Notes under the pieces: model-generated
What the model was told of the DNA's origin: nothing
The model's database searches: none
The model's input: the letters and a program-made list of their open reading frames with translations, nothing else
Translations under genes and position numbers: made by a program
Sequence record: KY703222
Source: Escherichia phage phiC120
Reading direction: 5' to 3' (one strand)
Length of the DNA: 64,000 nucleotides
Shown: piece by piece, positions 614 to 55,213 of the stretch
How positions within the stretch are numbered: the stretch's first letter is position 1
Layout of the letters: the number at the start of each line of letters is the position of its first letter

Positions 614-640
614 CCAATTTCATATTGGAAGGAGACTATC

Positions 641-2949: not shown

Positions 2950-2952
2950 TAT

Positions 2953-3468: not shown

Positions 3469-3470
3469 AA

Positions 3471-3764: not shown

Positions 3765-3772
3765 GAATTAAA

Positions 3773-5743: not shown

Positions 5744-8700
5744 CAGTAAAAGCGCCAGCAGTCACGAGTCTCAGATTATCTAAATTGTCCGCAAACCAAG
5801 TTCAAATTCGCTGGGATGAGGTTGGCGCTAATTTCTACTATTTTGTGGAAATAGCTGAGACCAAAACAGCTAACGGGGAAGCAATTCCCCGTAATAGCTA
5901 TAGATGGACTAATTTAGGATATACCGCTGATAACAATTTCTTTGAGTCTGGTTTAAATTCATTAACAACATATATGATGCGTGTGGCTACAGCAGCGGAG
6001 GGATTTGAGCAGTCTGATTGGAGATACACTGAAGAGTTTGAAACATTTGAAATAAACGCTTACACATTCCAACATATGATTGAAATGCAATTAGCTAACG
6101 AGTTTATTTCTGAAAAATTTACAAAAAATAATACAAACTACGTTGATTTTAATAATGACACGATCATGGCAGCACTGATGAGCGAGTCGTTCCAATTCAG
6201 TCCTGCATACACCGATGTGTCATCGATTAGAAATTTTATAATTGGTGAAAATCAGTATCATGAAATCCAGGGGCATATCCAGGATGTATGTAAAGATATA
6301 AATCGAGTATATCTAATGGAATCTGAAGGAATTCTTTACCTTTTTGAAAGATTCCAACCTATTGTAAAAGTGTCTAATGATAAAGGCCAAACATGGAAAG
6401 CGGTTAAATTGCTTAATGACCGTGTAGGATATCCACTTTCACGAACCGTATATTACCAATCAGAATATACGACGTATTTGCTCGGCTATGATAAGATTTT
6501 TTACGGGCGTAAATCATCCGATATTCGTTGGTCTGCTGATGATGTTCGTTTCAGTTCACAAGACGTAACATTTGCTAAAATCGGGGATAAATTAAATTTA
6601 GGTTTTGATGTAGAGATTTTCGGTACATACGCGTCATTACCAGGAAACGTATCACGTATTGCAGAAGCTATTACTTGTAATGATGACTATGTTTATATTG
6701 CGGCCAGAGATAAAGTTCGCTTCGTTAAAACCAGTAACGCTCCTATTGATTCAGATCCATTATCTCCGACCTATTCCGAACGGTTGTTTGAACCTGAGAC
6801 GTTTACAATAACAGGCAACCCTAAAGCAGTTTGTTATAAAATGGATTCTGTTGGTGGAAGAATATTCGCTCTTATTATTGGTGAAGTTGAAAACGTTAAT
6901 GACGACCCAAGAACAAAGCCTATTTTGGATTCCGTTGATAAAGGTGTATACGTTTTAGACCATGACGCTGGAACATTTAAAAGGATATTTGGTAATACCG
7001 AAGAAGAACGCCGTCGTATAGAACCGGCTTTCACCAATATGTCTACTGATGGTGTTGAGCTTTATATCTCTTCTAGTAATTTTAAATTTTTAGAATCTGA
7101 TATTGTTGACGACCCAGAAACGCAATCTAAGTACGGACTTTTGGGAGCAGTTAAGTATGAATATCCTAGAGAATGGCTCGCAGATAAACATTACCATATG
7201 ATGATTTTCGCATCAAACGAAGAAAGTAATTGGGAAACTTTTTCACCAACTCCTATGCAGTATTATGCAGAACCTTTCTTTAGTTATTCTAGAAAATCAG
7301 GCACACGTTCTTGGATTAATAACTCTGATAGAGCGGTAGTGATTTATTCTGATTTGCTTTACACAAAGGTAGTGGAAAGCTACCCTAGCACTTCACCTGA
7401 TCGTAAAGTTCACGAATACTGGAATGACGGCGATTGTAAGATTGTTATGCCGAATATAGAATTCACTGGATTTAAAAAATACGCATCTGGTATGTTGTTT
7501 TATAAATCATCAGGTGAAATAATTTCATATTACGATTTTAGTTATCGTGTTAGAGATAACGTTTCTATAATTTGGAAGCCCACTAACGTATTTTTGACCG
7601 CCTCATTACAAAACCAAGAAAAAGAAACTTCTTGGGTTCCTGTTGAAGAGACAGGTCTAGCTGACCCGGATTTACGCCCATTACTCACTACAATGATGCC
7701 AGAGTCTTATCTGTTGGATAATACAAACTTTGAAGCATTTTGTGAAGCGTATATTCAATATCTTTCTGATGGATACGGGACTCATTATAATAACTTATTG
7801 AATTTGATTAAAAATAAATACCCACGAGAAGAACACGCATGGGAATATCTTTGGTCTGAAATTTATAAACGGAACATTTATTTGAATGCTGAGAAACGTG
7901 ATTTAGTTTCTAGGTTCTTTGAGTCCAGAAGTTATGATTTTTATTCTACTAAAGGAACTGAAGCATCGTATAAGTTTTTGTTTAAAGTTCTTTATAACGA
8001 AGACGTTGAAGTGGAAATCGAGTCATCTGCTGGAACAGAGTATGATATCATAATTCAATCTGATTCTATAAGTGAAGATTTGGTTGGACAAACTATATAC
8101 ACCGCTACAGGTAGATGTAATGTTACATATTTAGAAAGAAGCTATTCTAAAGGTAAATTACAATGGACTGTGACTATTCATAACCTTTTAGGTAGGCTTT
8201 TAGTCGGACAAGAAGTAAAAGCCGAAAGACTAGCAGATTTTGAAGGTGAAATAGTTCGCGGTATTAAAGGTAAAGAACTTGCCCAAAACACTATCGATTA
8301 TTTTAATCGTGGTAGAGCTTATTACGTCATGAAAATAAAGTCAAATCTTCCATCCTCTCGTTGGAAATCTGACGTACTACGTTTTGTACATCCGGTAGGA
8401 TTTGGATTTATTGCAATAACCTTATTAACAATGTTTATTAATACAGGATTAACGCTTAAACATGTTGAAACTATTATTAATAAATATAAAAATTATAAGT
8501 GGGATTCCGGACTGCCTACGGAATATGCAGACCGCGTCGCTCGTTTAGACCCTCAAGGTAATGTAGAATTCAATCCTGTTACAGGTGAAGTAATTTATGA
8601 TGCTGGTCCTTATGCCGGTATCGAATACCCTTTACCTGCAAATTATAATGAAGAAAATGATAACTCTATTTTCCAAGGACAATTACCGTCCGAACGACGC

Positions 8701-8838
8701 AAGCCGATGAGCCCATTATTTGATGCATCAGGTACAACGTTCTCTAGATTTAGAGAGCTTGTTAATGAAAGATTGTTAGATAACGTGGGAAATCCTAGAG
8801 ACCCGATTAATCCACCACAGGTTAAATTAGATGAATGA
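5740..8838 (+). CDS. 7: baseplate wedge initiator gp7
   Basis: 1032 aa, same length as T4 gp7; synteny. Confidence 0.93.
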   Translation: MTVKAPAVTSLRLSKLSANQVQIRWDEVGANFYYFVEIAETKTANGEAIPRNSYRWTNLGYTADNNFFESGLNSLTTYMMRVATAAEGFEQSDWRYTEEFETFEINAYTFQHMIEMQLANEFISEKFTKNNTNYVDFNNDTIMAALMSESFQFSPAYTDVSSIRNFIIGENQYHEIQGHIQDVCKDINRVYLMESEGILYLFERFQPIVKVSNDKGQTWKAVKLLNDRVGYPLSRTVYYQSEYTTYLLGYDKIFYGRKSSDIRWSADDVRFSSQDVTFAKIGDKLNLGFDVEIFGTYASLPGNVSRIAEAITCNDDYVYIAARDKVRFVKTSNAPIDSDPLSPTYSERLFEPETFTITGNPKAVCYKMDSVGGRIFALIIGEVENVNDDPRTKPILDSVDKGVYVLDHDAGTFKRIFGNTEEERRRIEPAFTNMSTDGVELYISSSNFKFLESDIVDDPETQSKYGLLGAVKYEYPREWLADKHYHMMIFASNEESNWETFSPTPMQYYAEPFFSYSRKSGTRSWINNSDRAVVIYSDLLYTKVVESYPSTSPDRKVHEYWNDGDCKIVMPNIEFTGFKKYASGMLFYKSSGEIISYYDFSYRVRDNVSIIWKPTNVFLTASLQNQEKETSWVPVEETGLADPDLRPLLTTMMPESYLLDNTNFEAFCEAYIQYLSDGYGTHYNNLLNLIKNKYPREEHAWEYLWSEIYKRNIYLNAEKRDLVSRFFESRSYDFYSTKGTEASYKFLFKVLYNEDVEVEIESSAGTEYDIIIQSDSISEDLVGQTIYTATGRCNVTYLERSYSKGKLQWTVTIHNLLGRLLVGQEVKAERLADFEGEIVRGIKGKELAQNTIDYFNRGRAYYVMKIKSNLPSSRWKSDVLRFVHPVGFGFIAITLLTMFINTGLTLKHVETIINKYKNYKWDSGLPTEYADRVARLDPQGNVEFNPVTGEVIYDAGPYAGIEYPLPANYNEENDNSIFQGQLPSERRKPMSPLFDASGTTFSRFRELVNERLLDNVGNPRDPINPPQVKLDE

Positions 8839-9835
8839 TTCAAGTGTTGTCTATCGTTCGATAGTTACTTCAAAATTTAGAACTGAAAAAATGTTGAATT
8901 TCTACAATTCAATAGGTGATGGTGATAATAAAAACACCATCTTTATAACGTTTGGTCGGTCTGAACCATGGGCTGCTAATGAAAATGAGGTGGGCTTCGC
9001 CCCACCGTATCCAACAGACTCGGTTTTAGGTGTAACAGATATGTGGACTAACATGATGGGTTTAGTTAAAGTTATCCCATCTATGTTAGACTCTGTTATT
9101 CCTAGACGTGACTGGGGAGATATTCGTTATCCGGACCCTTATACATTCAAAATAAATGATATAGTCGTATGTAATACAGCCCCATATAATGCCACTGAAG
9201 TCGGAGCTGGATGGTTAGTATACCGTTGCGTAGATGTTCCTGATGTTGGGATGTGTTCTATTGAGTCTCTCGACAACAAAGAAGAATGTCTTAAATTAGG
9301 CGGTAAATGGACTCCATCTGTTAGGTCTTTAACCCCTCCTGAAGGCCGTGGAGACGCTGAAGGGATTATCGAAGTTGGTGATGGATATATATGGGAGTAT
9401 CTTTATGAGATTCCACCCGATGTGTCTATAAACCGATGTACTAATGAATATATAGTCGTTCCATGGCCGGAAGAAGTTAAAGAAGACCCTGCTCGTTGGG
9501 GATATGAAAACAATCTAACCTGGCAACAAGATGATTTTGGCCTTGTGTATAGAGTTAAAGCAAACATAATTCGTTTTAAAGCCTATTTAGACTCAGTTTA
9601 TTTCCCTAATGCAGCACTGCCTGGTAATAAAGGATTTAGACAAATTTCTATTATCACAAACCCGTTGGAAGCTAAACTCCGTCCTAATGACCCTAATATA
9701 AAAGCTGAAAAGGATTATTATGACCCCAGAGATTTACAGCGTCATTCCGGTGAAATGATTTATATGGAAAACCGTCCACCTATTATTATGGCAATGGACC
9801 AAACCGAAGAGATCAATATTTTGTTTATGTTCTAA
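8831..9835 (+). CDS. 8: baseplate wedge subunit gp8
   Basis: 334 aa, same length as T4 gp8; synteny. Confidence 0.92.
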   Translation: MNDSSVVYRSIVTSKFRTEKMLNFYNSIGDGDNKNTIFITFGRSEPWAANENEVGFAPPYPTDSVLGVTDMWTNMMGLVKVIPSMLDSVIPRRDWGDIRYPDPYTFKINDIVVCNTAPYNATEVGAGWLVYRCVDVPDVGMCSIESLDNKEECLKLGGKWTPSVRSLTPPEGRGDAEGIIEVGDGYIWEYLYEIPPDVSINRCTNEYIVVPWPEEVKEDPARWGYENNLTWQQDDFGLVYRVKANIIRFKAYLDSVYFPNAALPGNKGFRQISIITNPLEAKLRPNDPNIKAEKDYYDPRDLQRHSGEMIYMENRPPIIMAMDQTEEINILFMF

Positions 9836-9839
9836 TTTA

Positions 9840-9857
9840 GGGAGACTTCGGTCTCCC
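9840..9857 (+). terminator. hairpin GGGAGAC-TTCG-GTCTCCC after gene 8
   Basis: Perfect 7-bp GC-rich stem with UUCG tetraloop, followed by TTT; same sequence recurs at 29187 and, reverse-complemented, at 52007. Confidence 0.7.
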
Positions 9858-9864
9858 TTTCGTG

Positions 9865-9872
9865 TATAAATA
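9865..9872 (+). promoter_or_regulatory. late promoter TATAAATA for gene 9
   Basis: Exact octamer 26 nt upstream of gene 9 ATG. Confidence 0.65.
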
Positions 9873-9897
9873 GTATAAACTATTAAGGATTAGCCAC

Positions 9898-10761
9898 ATG
9901 TATATTCAAACTCCAAAACAATTGATTGACGTTGGCGAAATTGGTAACGCTTCTACAGGCGATATCCTTTTTGACGGCGGTGTTAAAATAAACAATGATA
10001 TAAATGCTATTTACAATGCGTTTGGCGACCAACGAAAAATGGCAACTGCTAATGGGACAGGACCAAATGGACAAATAATCCATGCTACTGGATACTACCA
10101 AAAAGGAGGTCCTACTGATTATTTCACCCCTGTTCCAGTAGGAAGTAGACACGACATAGATGCTTCTACTGGTGGTGTTATTGTTACTGTTGCTAGAGGT
10201 GAACTCGGTGATTCCGTGGAATTTATAAATTCAAACGGGTCAATTTCGGTAAACAACCCATTAAGTATCCAAGCATTAGATTCTATTAAAGGTGTTGCAG
10301 GTAATTTAGTTATAACTACACCTTATACTAAAGTTACTCTTCGTTGTATTTCTTCTGGTACAGGCGGTTCAATATGGGATTATTCTACAGAAAGTATGTT
10401 TAGTCATACCGAAATTCCTGTAGACGGGACATGGAATATTATTTCAGACTATGTCAATATTCCTCTATTTTATAAAACTGAATATAATGCTGCTAAACTT
10501 TTGGTTACATGCCAATCTGCCAACGGCAGAAAAATTAAATCATGCGAAATAAATATTCTAATAGATACAATTAATTCAAGAGTTATTTCAACTGAATACG
10601 CAGTGATGCGCGTTGGTAATGATAACGAAGAAGATGAAATTGCGAATATTAGTTTTTCGATAATTAACAATTTTGCCACTATGACAGTTTCTTCATATAT
10701 AAATGGTCTTCGAGTGGCAGCTAAAGTTATTTCAACTCAGAAAATTAGGGTCGCTCAATAA
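9898..10761 (+). CDS. 9: baseplate wedge / long tail fiber socket gp9
   Basis: 287 aa; synteny and recalled T4 gp9 similarity. Confidence 0.92.
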   Translation: MYIQTPKQLIDVGEIGNASTGDILFDGGVKINNDINAIYNAFGDQRKMATANGTGPNGQIIHATGYYQKGGPTDYFTPVPVGSRHDIDASTGGVIVTVARGELGDSVEFINSNGSISVNNPLSIQALDSIKGVAGNLVITTPYTKVTLRCISSGTGGSIWDYSTESMFSHTEIPVDGTWNIISDYVNIPLFYKTEYNAAKLLVTCQSANGRKIKSCEINILIDTINSRVISTEYAVMRVGNDNEEDEIANISFSIINNFATMTVSSYINGLRVAAKVISTQKIRVAQ

Positions 10762-12575
10762 TGAAACAAAATATTAAAATTGGGAACGTCGTTGATGACG
10801 GACAAGGCGATTACCTTCGTCGTGGTGGTGCAAAAATTAATGAAAACTTTGATGAGTTGTATTATGAATTAGGCGATGGCGAAGTTCCATATTCCGCTGG
10901 TGCCTGGAAAACATACCATTCTTCAGATGGACTTAATTTAGCTGCTGAATGGGGTAAATCATACGCAATTGATACTTCAACAGGGCGTGTTTCTATAAAT
11001 TTACCTAAAGGAACAGTGGAAGATTATAATAAAGTAATTAGAGCCCGTGATGTATTCGCCACATGGAATATTAACCCTGTAACATTAATTGCTGCTAGCG
11101 GTGATACTATTAAAGGTTCTTCTAACCCAGTAGAAATCAATGTGCAGTTTTCAGACTTAGAATTAGTTTACTGTTCTCCTGGGCGCTGGGAATACGTTAA
11201 AAATAAACAAATAGACAAAATTACTAGTTCTGATATTAGTAGTGTAGCTCGTAAAGAATTTTTAGTCGAAGTTCAAGGTCAAACTGATTTTCTTGATGTA
11301 TTTGGGTCTGTTTCTTATAATGTGAATAATATCCGTGTAAAACATCGTGGTAACGAATTATACTACGGTGATGCGTTCAGTGACAATAGTGACTTTGGTT
11401 CTCCTGGAGCTAATCCTGGAGAAATCGTTGCACTAGATGGTAAAAACATCCGTCTAAGACAACCGTGTAATATCGGCGACACCGTACAAATTGAAACCTT
11501 TTTGGATGGGATTACACAATTACGCAGTTCTTATTCTCGCCGCCAAATACGTATTTTAGATTCGAAATTAACAACCCGTCCTTCCTTAGAAGGAAGTGTA
11601 TATGTCGCTGATTTGTCAACTTTGAAATCTATTCCTTTTTCTGCATTTGGAGTTAATCCTTCAGAACCGGTCAATACCAATTCTTTAGAAGTTCGTTTTA
11701 ATGGTATTCTTCAAGAATTAGCTGGTACTGTTGGTTTACCTATGTTCAGATGTGAAGGCGCTGACGCAGAAACTTCTACCGAGTGTTCAGCTTTAGGTGG
11801 GACTTGGGTTACATCTAACACAGATTATTCTATTGAATATGATGATAACGATGCAACTATCGCACGTGCTTTAGTCTTTGACCGTAAGTTTGAAGACCAA
11901 GACATTATTGATATTACATGGTTTAATAACGATTTAGGCACTTTATTAAGTATCGATGACATTTTAGATACAACTGATGAAAGGTATGTCGCACAAGGTG
12001 CAACCGTAAATGTGACAGGCGATGTGGCTTTGACCGATTTCAATAATATCGGATGGCCTAATGTAGAATCTGTTCCTGCATATAGCAGGGAATTCTCGTC
12101 TATTGCAAATATTTTTAACACCATTTACCCTGTCGGTACTATTTACGAAAATGCAGTGAACCCTAATAACCCAGCCACGTATTTAGGATTTGGCTCTTGG
12201 AAATTATGGGGGCAAGGAAAAGTATTAGTTGGATGGAACGACGATATTAGCGATCCTAATTTTGCATTAAATAATAACGACCTTGATTCTAGCGGGAATC
12301 CTACACATACCGCCGGTGGAACAGTCGGAACAACGTCTAACACACTAACTAATTCTGATTTACCTCCTACTCAAACTGACGAGAAAGTTCTTATTTCCGA
12401 TGAGAACGGTACAATTATTATTGGTGGTTGTCAATACGACCCTGATGCAGAAGGTCCTATATACACCAAATACCGTGAAGGCCACGCCACAACGAATAGT
12501 ACACACATACCGCCTCAAGCCGTAAATAATATTCAACCGTCAGTTACCGTATACCGTTGGGTAAGGATTGCATAA
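10761..12575 (+). CDS. 10: baseplate wedge subunit and tail pin gp10
   Basis: 604 aa; synteny. Confidence 0.92.
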
Positions 12576-13234
12576 TGACCATACTTAATACTAAAGCGGG
12601 AGTAATATCCCGCGAAGCAGATTTTTTAGGATTTAGAAAAAATCCTACTCAAATTGATATTTTAAACAACCAAGGCGTAGGTTCTGTAACTATTTCTCAA
12701 TTGGCAAAAGGATTCTACGACGATAACGTAGAATCTGCAATAAACGATGTTCATAATATTGCTAGAGCAGATGTAGGAACAGTTACAATTAACACCTCAG
12801 GTGTATCTCCTGAAGGAACTTCACAGGTAGATTATTGGTCCTTTAGTGGAAGTGTAACTGACCCTAGTTTGCCCGATGGAAGCCCTGTTATTGTAAAAGT
12901 TTACGGGCTTCCTGTTAATGCTACTGTAGGTATGACAGCCGACGAATTTGTTGTACAATTACGTACTACTCTCCGGAATGCGATTTCCGACCAAATGGCT
13001 ATTGCAGAGTATAAAGATGACCCTACTGTTGGGACTAAATTACAAATAACATATTTAGATAACCAAAGACACGTACTCCCAACGTATTCCTCTTATGGTA
13101 TCACGGTTTCTCAAGAAATAGTGTCTCAGGCTAAGTCCGGGTACGGCACTTGGAATTTACTAGGTGCGCAAACCATTACTCTTGACAACCATATTTCACC
13201 TACAACCTTTTATTATTTTGTGAGAACCGCATGA
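12575..13234 (+). CDS. 11: baseplate wedge subunit and tail pin gp11
   Basis: Start [17 protein letters not shown] at a TAATG overlap with gene 10 stop; about 219 aa. Confidence 0.9.
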
Positions 13235-14781
13235 GTAACAATACATATCAACACGTTTCGAATGAATCGGTATATGTTGAATTTGACCCGGTAGGGTCAA
13301 ATTTTGATAGTTCAATAACCAATGTCCAGGCAGCCTTAGCCTCAATTAGCGCATATGGTGTTAAAGGTGTTCCGGACGCAAGCGAAGCAGAAAAAGGTGT
13401 AATTCAATTAGCGACAGAACAAGAAGTTCTTGATGGATTTAATAGTACTAAAGCCGTTACACCAGCCACATTAAATGCAAGACTTCAGTATCCGAACGCG
13501 TCAGAAACACAATACGGTGTAACTAAATATGCAACACAAGAGGAAGCCATTGCCGGCACTTTAGACACTGTTTCTATTACTCCACTTAAATTAAACCAAA
13601 CTATTGATAACACGTTCTCTACTCGTTATTCCACCGAAACAACTAACGGTGTTATTAAAATTGCAACTCAAACCGCTGCACTTGCCGGGTCTGATGATAC
13701 CACGGCAATGACACCGCTTAAAACTCAGCAATTAGCAATAAAATTAATTTCTCAAATAGCTCCTAATAACGACCCGGCTTCAGAATCTATTACTGGTGTT
13801 GTGCGTTTAGCTACGGTGGCTCAAACACGTCAAGGAACTCTTCGCGAAGGATATGCAATTTCCCCATATACCTTTATGAATTCTGTTGCAACACAAGAAT
13901 ATAAAGGTGTTATACGTCTAGGAACACAAACGGAAATTAATAGTAATTTAGGAGATGTTGCTGTAACAGGTGAAACGCTAAATGGTAGAGGAGCTACCGG
14001 TTCTATGCGTGGAGTCGTAAAATTAACGACGCAGGCCGGTGTTGCACCCGAAGGCGATAGTTCTGGAGCATTAGCATGGAACGCAGATGTAATTAATACA
14101 CGCGGTGGGCAAACTATTAATGGTTCTTTAAATTTAGACCATCTCACGGCAAATGGAATTTGGTCACGTGGTGGAATGTGGAAAAACGGTGACCAGCCGG
14201 TTGCAACAGAGCGATATGCATCTGAACGTGTTCCTGTTGGAACAATTCAAATGTTCGCAGGTGATAGCGCTCCTCCAGGTTGGGTTTTATGTCATGGCGG
14301 GACCGTTTCTGGGAACCAATTTCCAGACTATCGAAATGTGGTTGGAACGAGATTTGGCGGTGATTGGAATAATCCTGGAATTCCAGACATGCGCGGTCTT
14401 TTTGTTAGAGGAGCTGGTACAGGCAGCCATATTTTAAATAATCGCGGTCAAGATGGCTATGGAAAGGATAGATTAGGTGTAGGATGTGACGGTATGCATG
14501 TTGGTGGTGTCCAAGCACAGCAAATGTCATATCATAAACACGCTGGTGGATGGGGCGAATATCAACGTCATGAGGCACCATTCGGAGCATCCGTATATCA
14601 AGGTTATTTGGGTACTAGAAAATACGCTGATTGGGATAACGCATCATATTTCACAAATGACGGCTTCGAATTAGGTGGTCACCGCGACGCAACAGGCACT
14701 CTTAACCGTGAAGGACTTATCGGATATGAGACTCGTCCATGGAATATATCTTTAAATTATATTATTAAAGTCCATTACTAA
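13231..14781 (+). CDS. 12: short tail fiber gp12
   Basis: 516 aa; His-rich C-terminal receptor-binding region ([14 protein letters not shown]); synteny. Confidence 0.93.
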
Positions 14782-14790
14782 GGGTAAAAA

Positions 14791-16233
14791 ATGATCGAAT
14801 TAAAAAGTCTACCATACGTTGATGGCCCTCCTGATGAGGGTCAAAAACGCTTAAACTGGATTAAAAATTCAGAAGAAATAACTGGCGCTGATACGTTATA
14901 CGGTTCTGAAGGAGTAATGAACCGTCCAATAACAGAAGTTCAACGAAATGTAGAAACAATTAACGATAACGTTAAGACTATCGCAGAATCTTTAGATACC
15001 GCTAATGCTGATATTGTCACAATTAAAAGTATCTTGGATGTTTCTGGTGATGTAGATGCTTTAGCACAAATTGGACATAACACTGATGATATTGAAGTAT
15101 TAAAACACACTGTAAATTCACACGGTGTTGATATTTTAAACACTGAAGAAAAACTAGATGATACTATTGCTAATATCGGAGTAGTTAATCCAGAAACAGA
15201 TTCAGTGTATCGTACGGTGCGTAACGACCTTCTTTGGATTAAAACCGAATTAGGGCAATATACTGGGCAAGATATTAATGGTGTCCCGACCGAAGGTAAT
15301 GAAAGCACCGGGATGAAACGACGTATTATTACTAACAGCTCAGTGTTGGTTGACCAAGGCGTTCGTTTAACCGAGTTAGAAAATAAATTTGCCGATTCTG
15401 ATGTTGGGGCTCTGACAACCGAAGTTGAAAACCTCCGTCAAGAAATAGGTCCTAGACCATCGTTAACAGTACCGGTTTACACTCGTTTATCCGGTATTGA
15501 TTCATCCATTTCTATCCAAACTAGAGATATTGCGGCATTAAAAGATTTTGTTGGATATCCTAATTCAACCGCTATTAAAACTCAAGTCGAGGCCAATCGT
15601 CTTTCTATATCAACAATAAATTCAGACATTAACTCGCCTGGCGGTATTAAACCACGTTTGACAACGTTAGAAACTACTATAGGCTCTCCAGATTTACCAA
15701 CTACTCTTCAGGGTAAGATCAAATTAAATACCGATTCCATTTCAGGTATTAACACAGTTTTAGGTGTTGATTCTTCTAGTGGTTTACGTTTTAATGTAGC
15801 ATGGCTTAATCAGGTGGTTGGAGTTGATTCAAACGGTGGACAACCTGAACCGGCTGGTTCACTTTTATATAGGACTCGTGTTCTTGAAACTGGTGTTACC
15901 GACCTAGGCAATAACATTCAAAACGTTCAAACTGAATTGGGAACTAATTCGTCCGGTATTAAAGGACAAGTAACTAGTTTAAATAAACTTATAAGCGGTA
16001 CCAACCCAAACGGTCAAACCGTAGAAGAACGTGGTATATTGCCAACGGTTAAAAACCATGACACAACAATTATGGCTTTAACTACGCGTGTTACCACTTT
16101 AGAAACCGACCTTGCTGAAGCAGAAGCAGAAATTCAGGCCCTTAAAGAGGCTGGATATATCGAAGATGCTCCTTCAGACGGTAAATTCTATGTTCGTAAA
16201 GATGGTGCTTGGGTTGAACTTCCTACAGCTTAA
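14791..16233 (+). CDS. wac: fibritin (whisker/neck fiber) Wac
   Basis: 480 aa coiled-coil protein ending with foldon-like GYIEDAPSDGKFYVRKDGAWVELPTA. Confidence 0.93.
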   Translation: MIELKSLPYVDGPPDEGQKRLNWIKNSEEITGADTLYGSEGVMNRPITEVQRNVETINDNVKTIAESLDTANADIVTIKSILDVSGDVDALAQIGHNTDDIEVLKHTVNSHGVDILNTEEKLDDTIANIGVVNPETDSVYRTVRNDLLWIKTELGQYTGQDINGVPTEGNESTGMKRRIITNSSVLVDQGVRLTELENKFADSDVGALTTEVENLRQEIGPRPSLTVPVYTRLSGIDSSISIQTRDIAALKDFVGYPNSTAIKTQVEANRLSISTINSDINSPGGIKPRLTTLETTIGSPDLPTTLQGKIKLNTDSISGINTVLGVDSSSGLRFNVAWLNQVVGVDSNGGQPEPAGSLLYRTRVLETGVTDLGNNIQNVQTELGTNSSGIKGQVTSLNKLISGTNPNGQTVEERGILPTVKNHDTTIMALTTRVTTLETDLAEAEAEIQALKEAGYIEDAPSDGKFYVRKDGAWVELPTA

Positions 16234-16239
16234 TGAAAA

Positions 16240-16253
16240 GGGCCTTCGGGCCC
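16240..16253 (+). terminator. hairpin GGGCC-TTCG-GGCCC after wac
   Basis: 5-bp GC stem with UUCG loop immediately after wac stop. Confidence 0.55.
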
Positions 16254-16265
16254 TAAAGGATTTAT

Positions 16266-17192
16266 ATGTCAGGTTATAATGCACAAAACCCTAAAGAATT
16301 AAAGGATGTAATATTACGTCGTTTAGGCGCTCCTATTGTAAATGTTGAATTAACTACAGACCAAATTTATGATTGTATTTCCAGAGCATTAGAACTTTAT
16401 GGCGAATATCATTTTGATGGATTGAATAAAGGTTTCCATGTATTTTTTGTTGACGACGAAGAAAAATACCGTCACGGCGTATTTGATATGCGTGGTTCTA
16501 ATGTATTTGCTGTAACAAGAATTATAAGAACAAACGTTGGCTCTATTACTTCAATGGATGGTAACGCAACTTATCCATGGTTCACTGATTTCCTTTTAGG
16601 AATGGCAGGCGTTTCTGGTGGTATGGGTAGTAATTGTGGTAAATTCTACGGTCCGAACGCTTTTGGTGCCGACCTCGGGTATTATTCTCAATTAGTATCT
16701 TATATGGGTATGCTTCAAGATATGATTGCTCCTCTTCCAGATTTTTGGTTTAACTCTGCAAACGAGCAATTAAAAGTAATGGGTAACTTTAGACAGAAAG
16801 ATGTTATTATCGTTGAATCGTATGTTCGCTCTTATATTGAGACACATAAGATGGTAGGAAATACAGTAGGTTATGGACAGGTCGGTCCTCGTGATTCATG
16901 GTCTATTTCTGAGCGGTATGACAACCCAGACCATAATTTAGTCGGACGTCGAGTTGGTGAAGATCCTGCAACTAAACAAGGCGCATATAACAACCGCTGG
17001 GTTAAAGATTATGCAACTGCATTAGCTAAAGAGCTTAATGGACAAATTCTTGCTAAACATCAAGGTATGATGTTACCAGGCGGTGTCACTGTTGATGGTG
17101 TTCGATTAATTGAAGAAGCCCGTTTAGAGAAAGAAGCTTTACGAGAAGAGTTATATTTACTGGACCCTCCTGCGGGTATTTTGGTAGGTTAA
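16266..17192 (+). CDS. 13: neck protein gp13
   Basis: 308 aa; synteny. Confidence 0.92.
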
Positions 17193-32566: not shown

Positions 32567-33982
32567 TTATGGATATGTATAGATGATACCGGTTTCCAAA
32601 GCAGTTTTATGGATGACGTATCCATTACGTGATTCTTGAACATCAACTTCCGGATAGTCTTTCATCATCTTCTGAAGAGTGTAACGATGCAGGTAGTATT
32701 TACTATCTGGATCTTCAGTTTTCCAATCTTTACCTTCTTCAGTCATTTTTTGTATTTCATCCATAACCCACCAACCGCACCAGATGTAAGCTGAAGTACG
32801 ATGTGGAAGAGGATGAACATAAGGTAGTTCACCTTCTGGTTCAATTGGAGTCCGTTCAGCAATAACAACTTCAGCGGTTGAACTAATTGTCTTTGAAGTA
32901 TAGTTATCTTTAGTTAATACTGCTTCAACTTTAATTGTATGAGTACCAGCTGAGGAGGTATCAATACTGTAAGTATTAGTAGAATTACTTTCTGCTACGT
33001 TGTCTTTCTTCCAAGAATACACAATATTAGTATCACCTGGAGCACCAGTAACAGATGCTGTTAAAGTTGCAGTTCCACCAACAGTAGTATTAACTGATGG
33101 GGGAGATAAAGAAATGGTGGCACTATTAAATGTAGCATTATTAGTTACTACTGTTGCTTCTGCTGAAATTTCTTTTGTAACATAATTTGATGCAGAAACA
33201 GATACGGTGCATTTAAGAGTTTTACTTCCGACCTCGGTTGGAGTGAATTTATACGTAGCAGAAGTTGCATCTGGAATATTACTGTCATCCATTGACCACT
33301 GGAATGATGTAGTAGCACCTGAAGGTGCACCAGAGACATTTGCAGTTAAAGTAATAGGAACACCAAAGACTGTAGTCGGAGACTCAGGCGTAATTTTTAG
33401 TGTTGAAGAATTAGCCTTTTTATTTACAGTCAAAGAAACCGCTGATGATTCTACTGTTTTATCAACGTAATCAGTTGCAGTCACTGTGACGGAGCAAGTT
33501 ATAGACTTAGTTCCTTCAGATGTTGGCGTATATTCAAAGGTTGATTGCTTTTGACCATCAACAGCAACCCCGTCAACTTTCCATGTATAAGCAATAGCAG
33601 CACCACTAGGTTGATTGCTTACATTAGCAGTGAATGTTGTTGCTGTTCCAATTTCTACCGCCGCCGGAGAAGCCGGAGTAACAGCGACGGTAGAATTATT
33701 TTCTTTCTTATTAACAGTGATAGTTGTTGACGCTTCAGCTATTTCCGGATCTCCTGCGGAAAGTGTATTAGTTGCAACCACTTTAATTTTTTTTGTTCCT
33801 GCTGGAGAAGCAAGAGTATAATCCATTGTAGCAGCCGTAGACTCCTGTGCTATATCATCTACAGTCCAGACGTATGTAATAGTACCATCTGGAGTTTCAC
33901 CTGCAGGTGTAGCAGTGAATGTTTGTGAACCTCCAATAACCCCTGTAGGAGTTAAAGGAGATAACGTGACAGTGAATGTCAT
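32567..33982 (-). CDS. hoc: highly immunogenic outer capsid protein Hoc with four tandem Ig-like domains
   Basis: 471 aa; C-terminal capsid-binding region matches recalled T4 Hoc; N-terminus holds four ~93-aa Ig-like repeats. Confidence 0.9.
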   Translation of the reverse strand: MTFTVTLSPLTPTGVIGGSQTFTATPAGETPDGTITYVWTVDDIAQESTAATMDYTLASPAGTKKIKVVATNTLSAGDPEIAEASTTITVNKKENNSTVAVTPASPAAVEIGTATTFTANVSNQPSGAAIAYTWKVDGVAVDGQKQSTFEYTPTSEGTKSITCSVTVTATDYVDKTVESSAVSLTVNKKANSSTLKITPESPTTVFGVPITLTANVSGAPSGATTSFQWSMDDSNIPDATSATYKFTPTEVGSKTLKCTVSVSASNYVTKEISAEATVVTNNATFNSATISLSPPSVNTTVGGTATLTASVTGAPGDTNIVYSWKKDNVAESNSTNTYSIDTSSAGTHTIKVEAVLTKDNYTSKTISSTAEVVIAERTPIEPEGELPYVHPLPHRTSAYIWCGWWVMDEIQKMTEEGKDWKTEDPDSKYYLHRYTLQKMMKDYPEVDVQESRNGYVIHKTALETGIIYTYP

Positions 33983-39283: not shown

Positions 39284-40452
39284 CAGTATTCCAACGTCCA
39301 GGATATCCTAACTTAAGCGTTAAATTATACCAAGATTATTCGGCTTGGCAAGAAAATAGATATGTTGAACTCGCAGCAACAATAACAACTTTAACCATGC
39401 GAGATTCACTATATGGAAGAAATGAAGGGATTCTTCAATTTTATGACACTAAAAACATCCACACTAAAATGGATGGTAGACAGATAGTTCAAATCTCTGT
39501 TTCAAATTCAAACACACCTCTTCAAGTTAGAACTCGAATTTATGGATGTAGACATTATTCTGTGTCTGTGGACTCAAAAGGTGACAATATTATCGCAATT
39601 GAGCTTGGAACAATACATTCTATAGAGAACCTTAAATTTGGGCGACCATTCTTCCCAGATGCAGGCGAATCTATACGTGAAATGTTAGGTGTCATATACA
39701 AAGACCGTACGTTAATTACTCCGCCAATAAACACTATTAATGCTTATGTTCCTGATATTCCTTGGACAAGCACATTTGATGATTATTTGGCATATGTCAG
39801 AGAATTAGGACTTGCTACAGCGAGTGATAAGTTCGTATTCGTATGGCAAGATATTTTAGGCGTAAACATGATTGACTACGATACTCTTATTGGCCAGGAA
39901 GGCATTAAGATGGTTGTAGGCGAGCCAAATACCGTAGGTCAGTATATTCAAGAGCTTGAGTATCCATTAGTATGGGATTTTACCTGGATGACTAAAGCTA
40001 ACCAATTTACAAGAGACCCTATTAAAAACGCCACGGTATTCGCCCATTCATTTTTAGATACATCTATTCCGGTTATTGTTACAGGTGATGGTGATAACGC
40101 TATTGTTGTGTCAAGATCTGGTGGATATTCCGAAATGACCTATCGTAATGGATTTGAAGAAGCAAGTCGTCTTCAGACAATGGCTCAATATGACGGATAT
40201 GCTAAATGCACTACTACAGGTAATTTTAACATAACGCCTGCTACTAAAATTATATTTGTTGACCAAAAGAACCAATTCAAATCCGAATTTTACGTGGATG
40301 AAGTTATTCATGAGTTATCAAATAACAACTCACAAACTCATCTGTACATGTTTACCAACTCAATGGTGTTAGAACCTGTTAACCCAGTTAAGGTTAAAAA
40401 TGAACTTAAATCTGATTCTACCTCTAAAGAAAATAATTCTACCACAGTCTAA
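39280..40452 (+). CDS. 27: baseplate hub subunit gp27
   Basis: 390 aa; synteny. Confidence 0.93.
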
Positions 40453-40933
40453 TAAAAAGGTAATGATTCCTAAATTAGGGCTCAAACATTATAATCTTTT
40501 AAAGGACGTTAAAGGCCCTGATGAAAACATGAAAATCTTAGCTGATTCTATTTGTAAAAATATGAGTCCAGCAGATTTTGATTTTGCATGTCTACACATA
40601 TTGGAATTTAATAACAAACTTAAGTCTGAAGTTGAAAAAGACAGATTCACATATAAACTAGATGACGTCTATGTATGCCAACGAACAGAATTCCAATTCC
40701 AAGGCAATACTTTTTATTTTAGACCTCCAGGCAAATTTGAACAATTCGCTACAATCAGTGAAATGTTATCAAATTGCTTAATAAAAGTTAATGACGAAGA
40801 GAAAGAAATTTCTTTCCTTGAGATGCCTGCTTTTGTAATCAAATGGGCAGAAGACCTTTCGACAACTATTGCTATTCCAGGCCCTAATGGTCCTATTAAG
40901 GGTATAGCAGAAATTATTGGATTGCTTGAATGA
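40400..40933 (+). CDS. 28: baseplate hub distal subunit gp28
   Basis: 177 aa; overlaps 3' end of gene 27 in another frame. Confidence 0.9.
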
Positions 40934-42498
40934 AACCTGAAGAAATGAAATCCATGCGTAGAAATAAGGTCATTGCCGATAATAAACCACAAAAAGTAGC
41001 TGCAACAGCAGCTACCGATTCATTAGAAGCATTGAATGATATTTCATCAAAACTAGACGATGTCCAAGCCGCGTCTGAACTCACATCGCAAAGTGTAGAA
41101 GATAAAGGCAACGGAATTATTGAATCAATTGGAGACTTAAAGAATTCTACAGATAATACTGCTGAAGGCACAGAGCTTATCGCAGAAGTTATTGAAAAAC
41201 AAACTGAAGTCACTAAAAGTATAAACGAAGTTTCTAGTGCAATAAGCTCTAAGTTAGACCGATTAGCTACATTATTAGAGCAAAAATTACAAACATCCAC
41301 CGCTATTCAAAATACAGGAGGCACCTCTCTTGAAGTAATTGAGAACGCAATACCTGTTAAAGTGGTTGAGAACGAAACTTCTGATGAGTTGTTTAAAGCA
41401 TTACCTACACCTGAAAAGATTGATAATAAGCCAGACGAAGATTTCTTCCCAGCACCGGTTCAAGAAAGTGCTAATTCTACTTCCGATTCTAAAGGCGGAA
41501 TTAGCTTTAAATTGAGTGATAAAATTGCAATGCTCACCAAAACAGTTCAAGCCGGGTTTAATAAATCAATATCAATTTCAGACAGAATTGCTGGAATGCT
41601 TTTCAAATACACTATAACGGCTGCTATTGAAGCAGCAAAAATGGCCGCACTTATTCTTGGTATTGTTATCGGTATTGATTTATTGATAGTCCATTTCAAA
41701 TACTGGACAGACAAGTTCACTTCTGCCTGGGATTTATTTGATGAAAACTTTACTAAATTCTCCGACGAAGCTAAAGAGTGGGGTAAATTCTTAAGCGATA
41801 TATTCACTTCTATTGACTCGATAAAACAATTGTGGGAAGCTGGAGACTGGGGTGGTTTAACCGTTGCTATTGTCAAAGGTGTAGGAACAGCATTAATGAA
41901 CTTAGGTGAACTAATTCAATTAGGAATGGCTAAACTCTCCGCGTCTATATTGCGTGCTATAGGTTTTGGTGATACCGCGGACGAAATAGAAGGACGTGCT
42001 TTAGAAGGATTCCAAGAAACTACTGGGAACAAATTAAAGAAAGAAGACCAAGAGAAAGTCGCCAAATATCAAATGAAGCGTGACGACGGGGAATTAGGAA
42101 CCGTTTCTAAAGGTCTTGATATGTTACAACGCGGCAAAACATTCGTTACTAACTGGGTTCGTGGTAATGACAATAAAGAAGAGTTTAGTACAAGCGATGA
42201 GCGTGCTGCAGAATCGGCAAAATTAAAAGAGTTACCTGAAGAGGAACGTAAAGAGGCATATATAAAAGCTAATGAAACTCGGGCGGCCTTAGTTAGATTT
42301 GAGGATTATATCGATAAAATCGATATGACTAATCCGGAAAATGCTAAAAACGTTGAGAAGTCTTATGCCGATTTAAGTAAACTTATTAAAGACCCTGAAC
42401 TTAATAAAACTCCTGTTGTTAAAAAGGAATTAGATGCTAGATTTGAAAAGCTAAATAATAAAATGGCTGAAGCAAAAAAAAACTCAGACAACAGTTAA
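40930..42498 (+). CDS. 29: baseplate hub subunit / tail length determinator gp29, frame 1 segment ending early after an A9 run
   Basis: 522 aa in this frame against about 590 aa recalled for T4 gp29; TM segment and coiled coils present. Confidence 0.85.
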   Translation: MKPEEMKSMRRNKVIADNKPQKVAATAATDSLEALNDISSKLDDVQAASELTSQSVEDKGNGIIESIGDLKNSTDNTAEGTELIAEVIEKQTEVTKSINEVSSAISSKLDRLATLLEQKLQTSTAIQNTGGTSLEVIENAIPVKVVENETSDELFKALPTPEKIDNKPDEDFFPAPVQESANSTSDSKGGISFKLSDKIAMLTKTVQAGFNKSISISDRIAGMLFKYTITAAIEAAKMAALILGIVIGIDLLIVHFKYWTDKFTSAWDLFDENFTKFSDEAKEWGKFLSDIFTSIDSIKQLWEAGDWGGLTVAIVKGVGTALMNLGELIQLGMAKLSASILRAIGFGDTADEIEGRALEGFQETTGNKLKKEDQEKVAKYQMKRDDGELGTVSKGLDMLQRGKTFVTNWVRGNDNKEEFSTSDERAAESAKLKELPEEERKEAYIKANETRAALVRFEDYIDKIDMTNPENAKNVEKSYADLSKLIKDPELNKTPVVKKELDARFEKLNNKMAEAKKNSDNS

Positions 42499-42703
42499 GC
42501 CTGAATCTTCAACTAAATCTCCGGAAGCAAAACAAGTTCAGTCAATAGAGAAAGGACGTGCTTCTGAATCTAAACAACAGCAACCGGTAGCGACGATTAG
42601 TAACACAAATAATGTCGTCAAAAAGAATACCGTAGTCCAGAATATGACCCCTGTAACAAGTACAACGGCTCCTGGAATTTTCCATGCCACCGGTGTTAAT
42701 TAA
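42474..42703 (+). other. 29: A9 homopolymer plus 73-codon +1-frame continuation (putative gp29 C-terminus)
   Basis: Reading with one A fewer gives ...AKKTQTTVKPESST...GIFHATGVN, ending 8 nt before gene 48 ATG. Confidence 0.7.
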
Positions 42704-42711: not shown

Positions 42712-43821
42712 ATGATTAGTGTAAAAGAAATAGTAGTAGATGCAAAGGATTTAAATAAAGCAATCCCAGTCTCAGAAAGTGCTGGGCAAAGCACTAAAAC
42801 CGAAACAACTACTAAAACTTATGTTGCTCAATTTCCTACAGGAAGAGCAGCCGGAAATGACTCCACAGGAGACTTCCAGGTAACAGACCTTTATAAGAAC
42901 GGATTATTATTTACCGCGTACAATATGTCTGCACGCGATTCAGGATCCCTAAGAAATTTACGTCCGGCATATGCCAGGACTTCATCTAATGGTATCTTAT
43001 CAGATTTAACTGATAACGTGAAAGATGCAGTGACTAAATTCTCAAACGGATTGCTTCCTGCCGGAGCTAATAAATCTACTATAAATAAAACTCCTGTTGC
43101 TAATATCCTTTTGCCGCGTTCCAAATCTGACGTTGATACAACTTCGCATCGTTTTAATGATATCGGTGATAGCCTTATTACTAAAGGTGGAGGTACTGCT
43201 ACAGGTGTTTTAAGTAACATTGCTTCTACTGCAGTCTTTGGTGCATTAGATTCTATTACTCAAGGTCTTATGGCTGATAATAACGAACAGATTTATACGA
43301 CTTCTCGTAGTATGTACGGCGGTGCTGAGAACCGTACTAAAGTCTTTACATGGGATTTAACTCCACGTTCAACTGAAGACCTTATGGCTATTATAAACAT
43401 TTACCAATATTTTAACTATTTCTCATATGGCGAGACCGGTAAATCACAATACGCCCAAGAGATTAAAAGTTATTTAGACGAATGGTACCGTTCAACGTTT
43501 ATTGAGCCTATGACACCAGACGATGCTGTAAAAAATAAGACATTGTTTGAAAAGATTACTGCGTCATTAACAAACGTATTAGTTGTAAGCAACCCTACGA
43601 TTTGGATGGTTAAAAACTTTGGACACACATCTAAATTTGACGGGTTAACTGATGTATTTGGCCCATGTCAAATTCAAAGCGTACGTTTTGATAAAACTCC
43701 AAATGGACAATTTAATGGTCTCGCTGTTGCTCCTAACTTACCATCAACATTTACGTTAGAGATAACAATGCGAGAAATTATTACATTAAACCGTTCTTCA
43801 CTTTATGCGGGGACTTTCTAA
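42712..43821 (+). CDS. 48: baseplate tail tube cap gp48
   Basis: 369 aa; synteny. Confidence 0.92.
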   Translation: MISVKEIVVDAKDLNKAIPVSESAGQSTKTETTTKTYVAQFPTGRAAGNDSTGDFQVTDLYKNGLLFTAYNMSARDSGSLRNLRPAYARTSSNGILSDLTDNVKDAVTKFSNGLLPAGANKSTINKTPVANILLPRSKSDVDTTSHRFNDIGDSLITKGGGTATGVLSNIASTAVFGALDSITQGLMADNNEQIYTTSRSMYGGAENRTKVFTWDLTPRSTEDLMAIINIYQYFNYFSYGETGKSQYAQEIKSYLDEWYRSTFIEPMTPDDAVKNKTLFEKITASLTNVLVVSNPTIWMVKNFGHTSKFDGLTDVFGPCQIQSVRFDKTPNGQFNGLAVAPNLPSTFTLEITMREIITLNRSSLYAGTF

Positions 43822-52206: not shown

Positions 52207-52578
52207 TATAAATTCTCTTTAAATGAAAATGCAGGACTTATTGACATTGCCTGCTCAAGCCCTCAAGGGGAACATAGGTTTTTGGATATTTAACGACCAG
52301 GATAACCATAAACCCGTCATCATACCTTATAGCTCTTATCTGTTGCACACCGTTAGCTTAAAGGTTCCGGGTTCGATTTCTCGAGGATAAGATATATACT
52401 GATGGATATATAGGCCTTGAGGCGTACTCCCGATTAGCCATCACCTCGGGGTAGCATGCACTTACCGCTATAAGAACAACATTCAAGAGGTACACCGTAA
52501 AATTGTCGGGGCGGTACTTCTAAAACATACCGATTCGCAAATCGATAATCAGACAATTCGACGGCTCCTCGATTTAAC

Positions 52579-53650: not shown

Positions 53651-54221
53651 AAAAGTTTCGGATTTGTTCCCAATTCAGAGAACGAAGATTATTACGAGAG
53701 TACTGAATTACTTCAATACCAGCTTGTTTTAGAATATCTGCCCAATTTTCAGGAGATCGGTCGTATAATTCTGCGTATACGACCTTTTTAATACCTGACT
53801 GCGTAATAGCTTTAGTACAATCAGGACATGGAGAAAGCGTCGTATATAACGTAGCACCTTCAATAGAATTACCTTTACGAGCTGCAAACAAAATTGCATT
53901 CAATTCTGCATGGATTTCATTATTAGCAGACCATGCACTATGAGCAGCTCGATGTTCTTTGGCTAAAACAAAATTATCTACTCGTCCAAATGCTGTAGTG
54001 CCTTCTTTATGTCCAGCAACGATGACTGGGATTGGTTTATTCTTCAACCAACCATTTTCAGATGCATGTTCGCAACAGTTAACGCCACCTGCAGGTGAAC
54101 CGTTATATCCAGTAGAGATAATGCGTCCATCTTTTTCAATGACGGCACCAACTTTCCATGAACAACATTTTGATTCTTGAGAAATCAGATATGCAATCTG
54201 AAGGTATGTGCTAGCTTTCAT
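53640..54221 (-). CDS. cd: dCMP deaminase Cd
   Basis: 193 aa; cytidine/dCMP deaminase zinc motifs HAE and PCPDC. Confidence 0.93.
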   Translation of the reverse strand: MKASTYLQIAYLISQESKCCSWKVGAVIEKDGRIISTGYNGSPAGGVNCCEHASENGWLKNKPIPVIVAGHKEGTTAFGRVDNFVLAKEHRAAHSAWSANNEIHAELNAILFAARKGNSIEGATLYTTLSPCPDCTKAITQSGIKKVVYAELYDRSPENWADILKQAGIEVIQYSRNNLRSLNWEQIRNFCGE

Positions 54222-55213
54222 TATTGAACCTTATTAATATAAGTTAACAGCTCTTTAGTTTGTTCCCAACTGATGCACGCATCGGTAACGGAAACGCCAT
54301 AGGACATATTATCAGAAATTTTTTGATTTCCTTCATGTAGGAACGATTCTATCATAATTCCTTTGACCAAATCATTAGCTGCTAAATTTTTACCAATACC
54401 AATTTGATTGCTATAATGCCCATCAGCGTTTGCATGGCTACAGTCAACCATTACATAATGATTCAGACCTACTGCCCTTGCTTTGTTAGAAGCTTCTTGA
54501 ATATCAGAAGAATGATAGTTCGGGCCGTTGGTCCCGCCACGCAATACGATATGCGTATTCTGATTACCTTCAGCTTCAACAATGCCTACAGTACCATCGA
54601 CGTCCATACCCATATACCGATGAGGCCAGGCGGCACTATACATCGCGTCTGTAGCTACTTTAATAGAACCATTGGTTGCGTTCTTGAAGCCTACGCACAT
54701 CGGTAGACCTGAAGCAATTTCACGATGTGTCTGACTTTCAGTCGTACGGGCGCCAATAGCAACCCATGAGAAAATACCAGAAAGATACTTAATCGTGAAT
54801 GGGTCTAATACTTCAGTTGCTAATGGAAGTCCCATACGTAGAAGTTTACGACACAATGTTCGTGCAACTATAAGACCGTGGTTCATATCAAAACTTCCGT
54901 CAAGATATGGATCATTTACAAGACCTTTCCAACCTACGGTAGTTCGAGGCTTTTCAAAATAAACGCGCATCACTAACAGAACATTAGGAAGACGAGTTTG
55001 AAGTTCAGCCAGACGTTTGCCGTATTCAACAGCAGCAATAGGGTCATGAATTGAACAAGGACCTACAACAATAAGTTTGCGTGGGTCTTCACCGTTCATA
55101 ATCGAATTAACTTGTTCGCGATGAGAAGCCACTTGTGATGCGTAAGCTTCCGACAAAGGAATAATCTCAGCCAGTTCTTTTGGAGAAATAAGTTTTCCGA
55201 CGACAGGTAACAT
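54221..55213 (-). CDS. 3-deoxy-D-arabino-heptulosonate 7-phosphate (DAHP) synthase, class I AroG-like
   Basis: 330 aa; AroG/F/H hallmarks GPCSIHDP, MRVYFEKPRTTVGWKGL, GARTTESQTHRE, VGFKN, ILRGG, SHAN, ESFLHEGNQ, TDACISW; AAGGA SD. Confidence 0.88.
   Translation of the reverse strand: MLPVVGKLISPKELAEIIPLSEAYASQVASHREQVNSIMNGEDPRKLIVVGPCSIHDPIAAVEYGKRLAELQTRLPNVLLVMRVYFEKPRTTVGWKGLVNDPYLDGSFDMNHGLIVARTLCRKLLRMGLPLATEVLDPFTIKYLSGIFSWVAIGARTTESQTHREIASGLPMCVGFKNATNGSIKVATDAMYSAAWPHRYMGMDVDGTVGIVEAEGNQNTHIVLRGGTNGPNYHSSDIQEASNKARAVGLNHYVMVDCSHANADGHYSNQIGIGKNLAANDLVKGIMIESFLHEGNQKISDNMSYGVSVTDACISWEQTKELLTYINKVQ

Follow-up and report, generated by a model that had tools for sequence, protein, structure and literature searches.

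An extra A in a nine-A run splits gene 29, the tape-measure gene, in the deposited genome of Escherichia phage phiC120

We found that gene 29 of Escherichia phage phiC120 (sequence record KY703222), the T4-type gene for the tape-measure and hub protein gp29, is interrupted near its 3′ end, where a nine-A run contains one A too many, that the conserved C-terminus of the protein lies directly downstream in the +1 frame, and that the lesion is unique to this record among ~160 relatives. The lesion is a change of one base, private to the record, in a gene already known, and most likely does not belong to the biology of the phage. We consider it to be either an error of the record or a lesion of very recent origin, open to bypass by RNA polymerase slippage, and in neither case a new gene arrangement. 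We give about an even chance to a functional genome with eight A's at this site, the ninth A then being an overcall of one A or the mark of a mixed stock.

The window, that is the whole stretch of 64,000 nucleotides that was analysed, carries the gene order 51-27-28-29-48-54 as in RB69, with gene 29 between genes 28 and 48 and its start overlapped by the stop of gene 28 (ATGA; Table 1). The gene 29 region is 98.3% identical at the DNA level to RB69 gene 29 (1773 nt, 590 aa; annotation “baseplate hub subunit, tail length determinator”), and residues 1-517 are 99.2% identical to RB69 gp29. Compared with the Pfam family PF25671 (T4_Tape_measure; cut-off 27 bits), the 522-aa open reading frame matches positions 3-521 of 590 (E = 2.9e-193, 644 bits) and the +1 peptide matches positions 519-590 (E = 7.6e-26, 91 bits). 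Because profile positions 521 and 519 abut, the 522-aa frame and the 73-aa peptide are consecutive parts of one protein. Furthermore, residues 504-590 of T4 gp29 (PDB 9mkb) align over their full length with the last 87 residues of the repaired protein (E = 1.3e-26). The +1 peptide shares 50 of its 73 residues with T4 gp29, 18 of the last 20 among them, and within the region T4 and phiC120 agree most closely over its last 35 residues (30 of 35 identical). Judged by these alignments, the gene is a single ordinary T4-type gene 29 for a 590-aa tape-measure and hub protein. A preliminary description of this DNA had called it a gp29 tape-measure gene that is split at the A9 run and continues to its true C-terminus in the +1 frame; the Pfam, RB69 and T4 comparisons bear this out. 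Ten proteins of the window have exact counterparts in phiC120, several of which are known from no other source, and gp48, gp27, gp51 and Alt.-3 likewise match phiC120 proteins exactly. From the numbering of the neighbouring proteins, the phiC120 gp29 entry is probably ARM70752.1 / YP_010090031.1.

Table 1. Coordinates of gene 29, its parts and its neighbours in the window
Feature	Position	Strand	Basis
Gene 28, baseplate hub distal subunit, upstream neighbour	40463..40933	+	exact protein ARM70751.1 (phiC120)
Gene 29, 5′ part, in-frame 522-aa ORF	40930..42498	+	ORF list; Pfam PF25671; RB69 comparison
A9 frameshift site	42474..42482	+	window GC-AAAAAAAAA-CTCAG; relatives 8 nt, CAAAAAAG or CAAAAAGG
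Gene 29, 3′ part, +1 frame, 73 codons plus TAA (42701-42703)	42482..42703	+	translation; PF25671; 9mkb
Last 20 codons of the +1 part, counterpart of the T4 gp27-binding segment	42641..42700	+	18/20 vs T4
Gene 48, baseplate tail-tube cap, downstream neighbour	42712..43821	+	exact protein ARM70753.1 (phiC120)

Direct reading of the sequence, with all runs counted, gives exactly nine A's at 42474-42482. This is the longest homopolymer of the 64 kb, followed by one T8 and by only two A7 and two T7 runs. The 522-aa frame ends in ...MAEAKKNSDNS* with the TAA at 42496-42498; NSDNS represents five out-of-frame residues, the true frame being broken after codon 517. In the +1 frame, the ACT at 42482 begins 73 sense codons, TQTTVKPESSTKSPEAKQVQ...TAPGIFHATGVN (TQTTVKPESS...APGIFHATGVN), and this frame is in fact free of stops from 42455 on, for a total of 82 codons. 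From its TAA (42701-42703), 8 nt lead to the ATG of gene 48 at 42712. As deposited, gene 29 has no single uninterrupted frame of ~590 codons; deletion of one A restores such a frame and gives a gp29 of exactly 590 aa (517 + 73), where the preliminary description had estimated about 592. Its other figures, namely the A9 at 42474-42482, the stop at 42498 after 522 aa, the 73 open codons to 42703 with one A fewer, ending 8 nt before gene 48, and a length of about 590 aa for T4 gp29 (590 aa in the chain of PDB 9mkb), agree with the direct reading, the translation and the structure entry.

An open stretch of 73 codons has a probability of ~0.004 given the local base composition, and the longest open stretches in the two off-frames of upstream gene 29 are 58 and 36 codons. 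That such a stretch is unlikely by chance, as the preliminary description had argued, is therefore upheld by the statistic and by the match to PF25671 (E = 7.6e-26); beyond the open-frame statistic, it is homology that speaks decisively against chance alone as the source of the +1 frame. No ATG, GTG or TTG in the +1 frame would yield a product of at least 40 aa, and the sole internal ATG of the +1 piece would yield 19 aa. Independent translation of the C-terminal piece is ruled out for want of a suitable start codon, and a gp29-gp48 fusion is ruled out by the many zero-frame stops ahead of gene 48.

By direct alignment, the site reads GC-CAAAAAAG-CTCAG in ESh27 and GC-CAAAAAGG-CTCAG in RB69. 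The phiC120 run differs from its relatives by C>A (42475 as aligned), G>A (42482) and one additional nucleotide; the C>A change is synonymous (GCC>GCA), and the G>A change replaces Ala518 by Thr in the repaired frame. None of the three changes occurs in any of the 11 aligned relatives, every one of which has the C and G flanks. Over the 9 kb compared with these 11 relatives there are 19 private differences, three of them at the A9 site, and the A9 insertion is the sole private indel. The preliminary description had missed that the A9 run is private to the record and that it derives from two flanking substitutions plus an insertion.

The gene 29 region spans 1781 nt in the 40 best-listed phage records, compared with 1782 nt in the window. 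A 111-nt query around the run matched 149 phage records with a best identity of 97.3%, and each of the 60 listed spans 110 nt. All 10 further contigs with an identical gp54 encode a 590-aa gp29, and eight of these were matched by site pattern, as CAAAAAAG or CAAAAAGG. Contig L016, which has an identical Alt protein, is only 98.3% identical and has an intact gene 29 with an 8-nt version of the site; two metagenome contigs also carry one of the two 8-nt versions. Collectively, the ~160 relatives (149 phage records, 10 contigs, L016 and two metagenome contigs) have 8 nt at the site (C-A5/6-G1/2) and an intact 590-aa frame, and none has a short gp29, among the matches listed. The +1 peptide aligns to the gp29 C-termini as their conserved C-terminus, which sustains the reading of the preliminary description. 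Furthermore, the 221 nt 3′ of the run are identical to ESh27, indicating that the downstream frame has not decayed.

Exact scans of IMG/VR for the A9 allele, the A8 allele and the gapped pattern gave no matches, nor did a metagenome scan for GC-A8(+0-2)-CTCAG. A general gapped metagenome scan returned 39 loci, of which only two were Mosigvirus, both with CAAAAAGG, and the others were chance matches. The protein collection that was searched contains neither the 522-aa product in its exact form, nor the repaired products of 590 and 591 aa, nor two gp29 versions with alternative starts. The proteins found only in phiC120 are present in NCBI, nr and UniRef, and none of them was found in the Logan assemblies of sequencing runs.

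Two independent neutral substitutions flanking the same A6 run are very improbable (estimated at ~1e-4 or less per genome), and hence the three clustered changes are probably linked. The link is probably either mechanistic (slippage and dislocation at the run) or technical. A complex mutation templated by a nearby repeat was ruled out, as no template was found; allowing up to 3 mismatches, the window holds no second copy of the site 19-mer on either strand. Illumina errors hardly account for the two substitutions, so that at least an A8 run is probably real, and such a run would itself be a true hot spot for a genuine +1 slip.

The segment lost from the 522-aa product has a known role in T4, where the C-terminal 20 residues of gp29 anchor the protein to the gp27 hub trimer. 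In the in-situ structure, gp29 runs from the DNA end of the tube, where its N-terminus is located, to the baseplate, where its C-terminus is, and the T4 authors suggest that the gp29-gp27 complex may initiate tail assembly (PMC12929629). By sequence conservation, the last 20 residues of the phiC120 protein would bind the gp27 hub as in T4. The 522-aa product lacks this anchor, making a functional short gp29 unlikely. With the hub-binding end lost and the phage growing to 1e12 PFU/ml (PMC8022965), phiC120 must therefore make full-length gp29.

The least probable account, which we regard as very unlikely, is a real truncation that is not rescued, so that tails would be built with a 522-aa gp29 minus its C-terminal 73 residues and tail length would be altered. 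It could draw on the published description of phiC120 tails as “noncontractile” and measuring 297 ± 5 × 23 ± 1 nm, compared with 113 nm for T4 (PMC8022965). However, the missing segment includes the gp27-binding end, with 30 of 35 residues identical to T4 over the last 35, and the frame downstream of the lesion shows no decay. The preliminary description had listed a real truncation with altered tails among the possible causes, which is disfavoured by the presence of the 20 gp27-anchoring residues in the missing part (PMC12929629). Furthermore, under a ruler model a shortened ruler should yield short tails or no tails at all, whereas those reported are 2.6 times longer.

The ruler length is itself expected to be normal, since any rescued gp29 would have 590 or 591 aa. 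Taking lambda as a guide, we estimate that an isometric head of 62 nm suits a genome of ~50 kb; it does not suit a T4-type genome, which has ~168 kb and the genes for gp23 and gp24. As the phiC120 micrographs show isometric heads of 62 ± 2 nm (PMC8022965), the electron microscopy probably depicts another particle or is mis-scaled. We do not think that the broken tape-measure gene and the 297-nm tail are connected. The spread of the tail length, 5 nm, would be unexpected for an unregulated tube.

The quality of the record bears directly on the origin of the ninth A. The phiC120 genome was sequenced from a Nextera library by HiSeq 100-bp paired-end reads, assembled de novo in Geneious R10 at more than 100x coverage and deposited as a single contig of 186,570 bp, KY703222.1 (PMC8022965). 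This length compares with ~168 kb in the relatives, and gp5 and gp12 occur twice among the phiC120 proteins, from which we conclude that the record carries an untrimmed duplicated end. The sister record phiE142 from the same laboratory is 99.64% identical to the window over 17 kb without gaps; it contains the gp6-gp12 block twice, misses ~47 kb including gene 29 and is clearly misassembled.

At the level of single bases, KY703222.1 is not generally unreliable. Among ~78 RB69 genes mapped onto the window, gene 29 alone is frame-split, and the single-base indels relative to ESh27 are intergenic or form closely spaced compensating pairs, gene 29 excepted. Those that differ from RB69 as well were compared further: three other phages have the same A7 run near 36527, Tequatrovirus (T4-type) records align gap-free over the T5 and CC near 52279-52297, and other contigs share the A6 at 44785. 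These tested indels thus occur in other phages and are hence natural. The T8 in hoc is in frame and conserved. Furthermore, 13 of 16 private substitutions in the 9 kb are synonymous, a pattern typical of real divergence under selection, not of error. A systematic homopolymer artefact across the record is ruled out, as there is no other broken gene among the ~78 mapped and no other private indel in the 9 kb.

The reading that we prefer places eight A's in the functional genome, and we infer that the extra A is absent from it. The DNA that encodes gp29 in infective phiC120 would then read GCA AAA AAA ACT, giving ...AEAKKTQTT..., and the ninth A would be an overcall, made in the consensus or the assembly, at the region's longest homopolymer; alternatively, it would stem from a mixture of A8 and A9 in a stock of high titre that had not been purified again. 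Virions would contain gp29 at its normal length of 590 aa, and its C-terminal 20 residues would dock on the gp27 hub and start tube assembly. We favour this reading because without one A the product has exactly 590 aa and is collinear with RB69 and T4 gp29, and because all examined relatives have 8 nt and an intact gene while the downstream frame is free of decay. It is also favoured because the longest homopolymer is where length miscalls and stock heterogeneity concentrate, and because the record was not carefully finished and its sister phiE142 is grossly misassembled. It is weakened by the depth of the Illumina data, A8/A9 consensus errors being uncommon at more than 100x, by the accuracy of the record elsewhere, and by the presence at the site of three changes instead of one.

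Alternatively, the A9 run may be genuine, with full-length tape measure made only from the minority of late transcripts on which RNA polymerase has slipped, which we regard as a real possibility that falls short of an even chance. Under this hypothesis, two substitutions would have turned A6 into an in-frame A8, to which replication slippage added one A. The host RNA polymerase, which transcribes T4-type late genes, would slip on the T9 template, and the transcripts that restore the frame would carry A8 (-1 nt, 590 aa) or A11 (+2 nt, 591 aa with an extra Lys). Full-length gp29 would contain the junction peptide AEAKK(K)TQTTVKPESSTK, and unslipped mRNA would yield the 522-aa fragment, which has no hub anchor and is presumably inert.

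The run has the length required: it places nine A's at the frame junction, where a threshold of at least nine A/T was taken for slippage sites (PMC3694819, PMC1088944). Nine is the shortest run on which the RNA polymerase of E. coli can realign without losing its RNA-DNA hybrid of ~8 bp (PMC3694819), and runs of nine A/T give mRNAs with up to 6 extra nucleotides (PMC5009743). Runs of at least 9 nt are selected against in many bacterial genomes (PMC1088944), and AAA_AAA_AAA has a single occurrence in E. coli coding sequence (PMC5009743). Slippage is known to rescue interrupted genes, as for Citrobacter tssM1 (PMC4256274) and in Buchnera and Blochmannia, where 12-50% of the transcripts of interrupted genes are corrected (PMC5009743). 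Slippage is further supported by an Illumina record that is otherwise clean and by the low copy number of gp29, 3 per tail (PMC3004832). With 3 to 6 gp29 chains per virion, a minority of corrected mRNA would suffice.

However, the run and the frameshift occur in no relative, and the arrangement is therefore not a selected one; the conservation of run and split frames that would mark programmed slippage is absent from the ~160 relatives, among the matches listed. Revertants from A9 to A8 should be frequent and should outgrow the mutant unless its cost is small. Furthermore, slippage at A9 mostly adds bases (PMC5009743), so that the restoring classes (-1 and +2) would be only a part of the slipped pool.

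Restoration of the frame in translation is also conceivable, a real A9 being read by a Lys-tRNA that slips +1 (or -2) on A_AAA_AAA_AAC to give 590 (or 591) aa; this seems improbable to us. The sequence is slippery, as all shifted codons inside the run are AAA and re-pairing would be perfect, and A-runs that shift into the +1 frame by +1 or -2 are documented (PMC5009743). Against it, for an engineered A9 in lacI the effect was put down to transcription errors, not to translational frameshifting (PMC3694819). Reading of the sequence upstream found no Shine-Dalgarno-like element, the A-site codon past the shift site is AAC and not a stop, and the fold of 42420-42570 is no better than that of shuffled controls (z = -0.89). 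A_AAA_AAC is a classical -1 slippery heptamer. The -1 frame that it would favour ends here after 21 codons, and the site is not conserved among relatives. The stimulator and the conservation that mark a programmed ribosomal frameshift are thus both lacking at this site, and programmed recoding in general was ruled out by the lack of conservation and of a stimulatory element or RNA structure.

These readings differ in what follows from them. If the extra A is an error, as we prefer, the phiC120 gp29 entry should be 590 aa long, the truncated form should not be propagated in databases, and a truncated gp29 offers no argument on tail length. If A9 is real, it would provide a simple natural system to measure how much slippage-derived product a low-copy structural gene needs, and would illustrate how substitutions that lengthen a homopolymer create a mutational hot spot together with its own escape route. 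Were slippage to be the rescue, phiC120 would be a natural T4-type phage whose essential tail ruler depends on slippage, caught soon after the 9-nt threshold was reached. Either way, it is a single event private to a single record, and does not characterise T4-like tape-measure genes in general.

The nearest comparison is with gp29 of T4 and RB69 (Pfam PF25671; PDB 9mkb, 9mog), with which the phiC120 gene shares the family, the locus and, minus one A, the 590-aa length. The T4 and RB69 frames are intact, whereas that of phiC120 is broken after codon 517 by the extra A, and residue 518 is Thr in the repaired phiC120 protein, Ala in the Mosigvirus relatives and Asn in T4. Among recoded phage genes, the programmed -1 ribosomal frameshift of the lambda G/GT type (mentioned in PMC5009743) lies in the tail assembly chaperone genes. 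Like the phiC120 site it is a frameshift in a phage tail cluster near the tape-measure function. However, the lambda-type shift is -1, lies in a chaperone gene upstream of the tape measure and is conserved across phages, whereas in phiC120 a shift of +1 or -2 would be needed at the 3′ end of the tape-measure gene itself, at a site that is not conserved.

Genes rescued by slippage, such as Citrobacter rodentium tssM1 (A11), the poly(A)-interrupted genes of Buchnera and Blochmannia and Shigella spa13/mxiE, resemble phiC120 in having a poly-A run closely followed by a premature stop, an essential C-terminal domain encoded in a different frame and a product that belongs to a contractile-tail-like machine. 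In those genes slippage was shown by experiment, whereas for phiC120 it is a proposed mechanism. The phiC120 run of nine is at the slippage minimum, compared with A11 in tssM1, and frameshifting of tssM recurs in Yersinia pseudotuberculosis (PMC4256274), whereas the phiC120 run is private to one record. Finally, the A9 of Thermus thermophilus dnaX and the A9/T9 sites of IS elements share with phiC120 nine A's in the coding sense strand (PMC1088944). At those sites the genomic frame encodes the full-length product and slippage gives a shorter one, whereas in phiC120 it is the genomic frame that encodes the truncated product.

The window belongs to Escherichia phage phiC120, whose deposited record (KY703222.1) has a length of 186,570 bp, about 18 kb above that of relatives; gp5 and gp12 have two entries each in it. 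Because of this excess length and these double entries, the record appears to retain a duplicated end, left untrimmed after assembly of a circularly permuted genome. The 121-kb record of phiE142 (KU255730.1), a sister phage from the same laboratory, is labelled 'complete'; it carries the gp6-gp12 block twice (record positions 96928-107936 and 110443-121430) and is without about 47 kb, from gene 13/14 through gene 35. phiE142 has been placed in a separate genus, Carettavirus, despite a gap-free identity of 99.64% to window positions 30-17163.

By electron microscopy, the phiC120 particle has been described as having an isometric head of 62 nm and a 'noncontractile' tail of 297 x 23 nm (PMC8022965). 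This morphology is at odds with the T4-type structural gene set of the window and with a genome of about 168 kb, and the mismatch suggests that the micrograph is of a different particle or is mis-scaled.

The features discussed below are listed in the table.

Positions of the additional features in the window
Feature	Window position	Strand	Description
Gene 28, two candidate starts	40400-40933		products of 177 aa or 156 aa
Intergenic stretch upstream of gene 30.9	52225-52355		best match Tequatrovirus
330-aa ORF between cd and cd.2	54221-55213	-	Pfam DAHP_synth_1, E=5e-75
T8 run (A8 in sense strand of hoc)	33787-33794		in frame
alt, paired compensating indels vs RB69	45673/45842		window as ESh27
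nrdB, paired compensating indels vs RB69	61072/61191		window as ESh27
nrdA, paired compensating indels vs RB69	62472/62495		window as ESh27
Gene 22, paired compensating indels vs RB69	26770/26779		window as ESh27

For gene 28, public records are divided between the two starts, the longer version overlapping the end of gene 27 and the shorter being the one annotated in RB69 and phiC120. Upstream of gene 30.9, Tequatrovirus (T4-type) records match the intergenic stretch best (98.5%, gap-free) and Mosigvirus relatives less well, which indicates a small patch of recombinational mosaic. Its Pfam match marks the ORF between cd and cd.2 as an auxiliary metabolic gene whose predicted product is DAHP synthase-like; ESh27 and L016, a relative contig with an identical Alt protein, carry this ORF as well, and it is missing from RB69.

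Compared with the RB69 reference, coding genes of the window contain pairs of compensating +1/-1 indels, which are either real compensated frameshifts in RB69 or local errors in its 2003 sequence. The nrdB proteins of the window and RB69 share only 88% identity. The T8 run in hoc is kept, in frame, in both RB69 and ESh27; phages of this group therefore tolerate an in-frame homopolymer of 8 nt within one of their coding genes.
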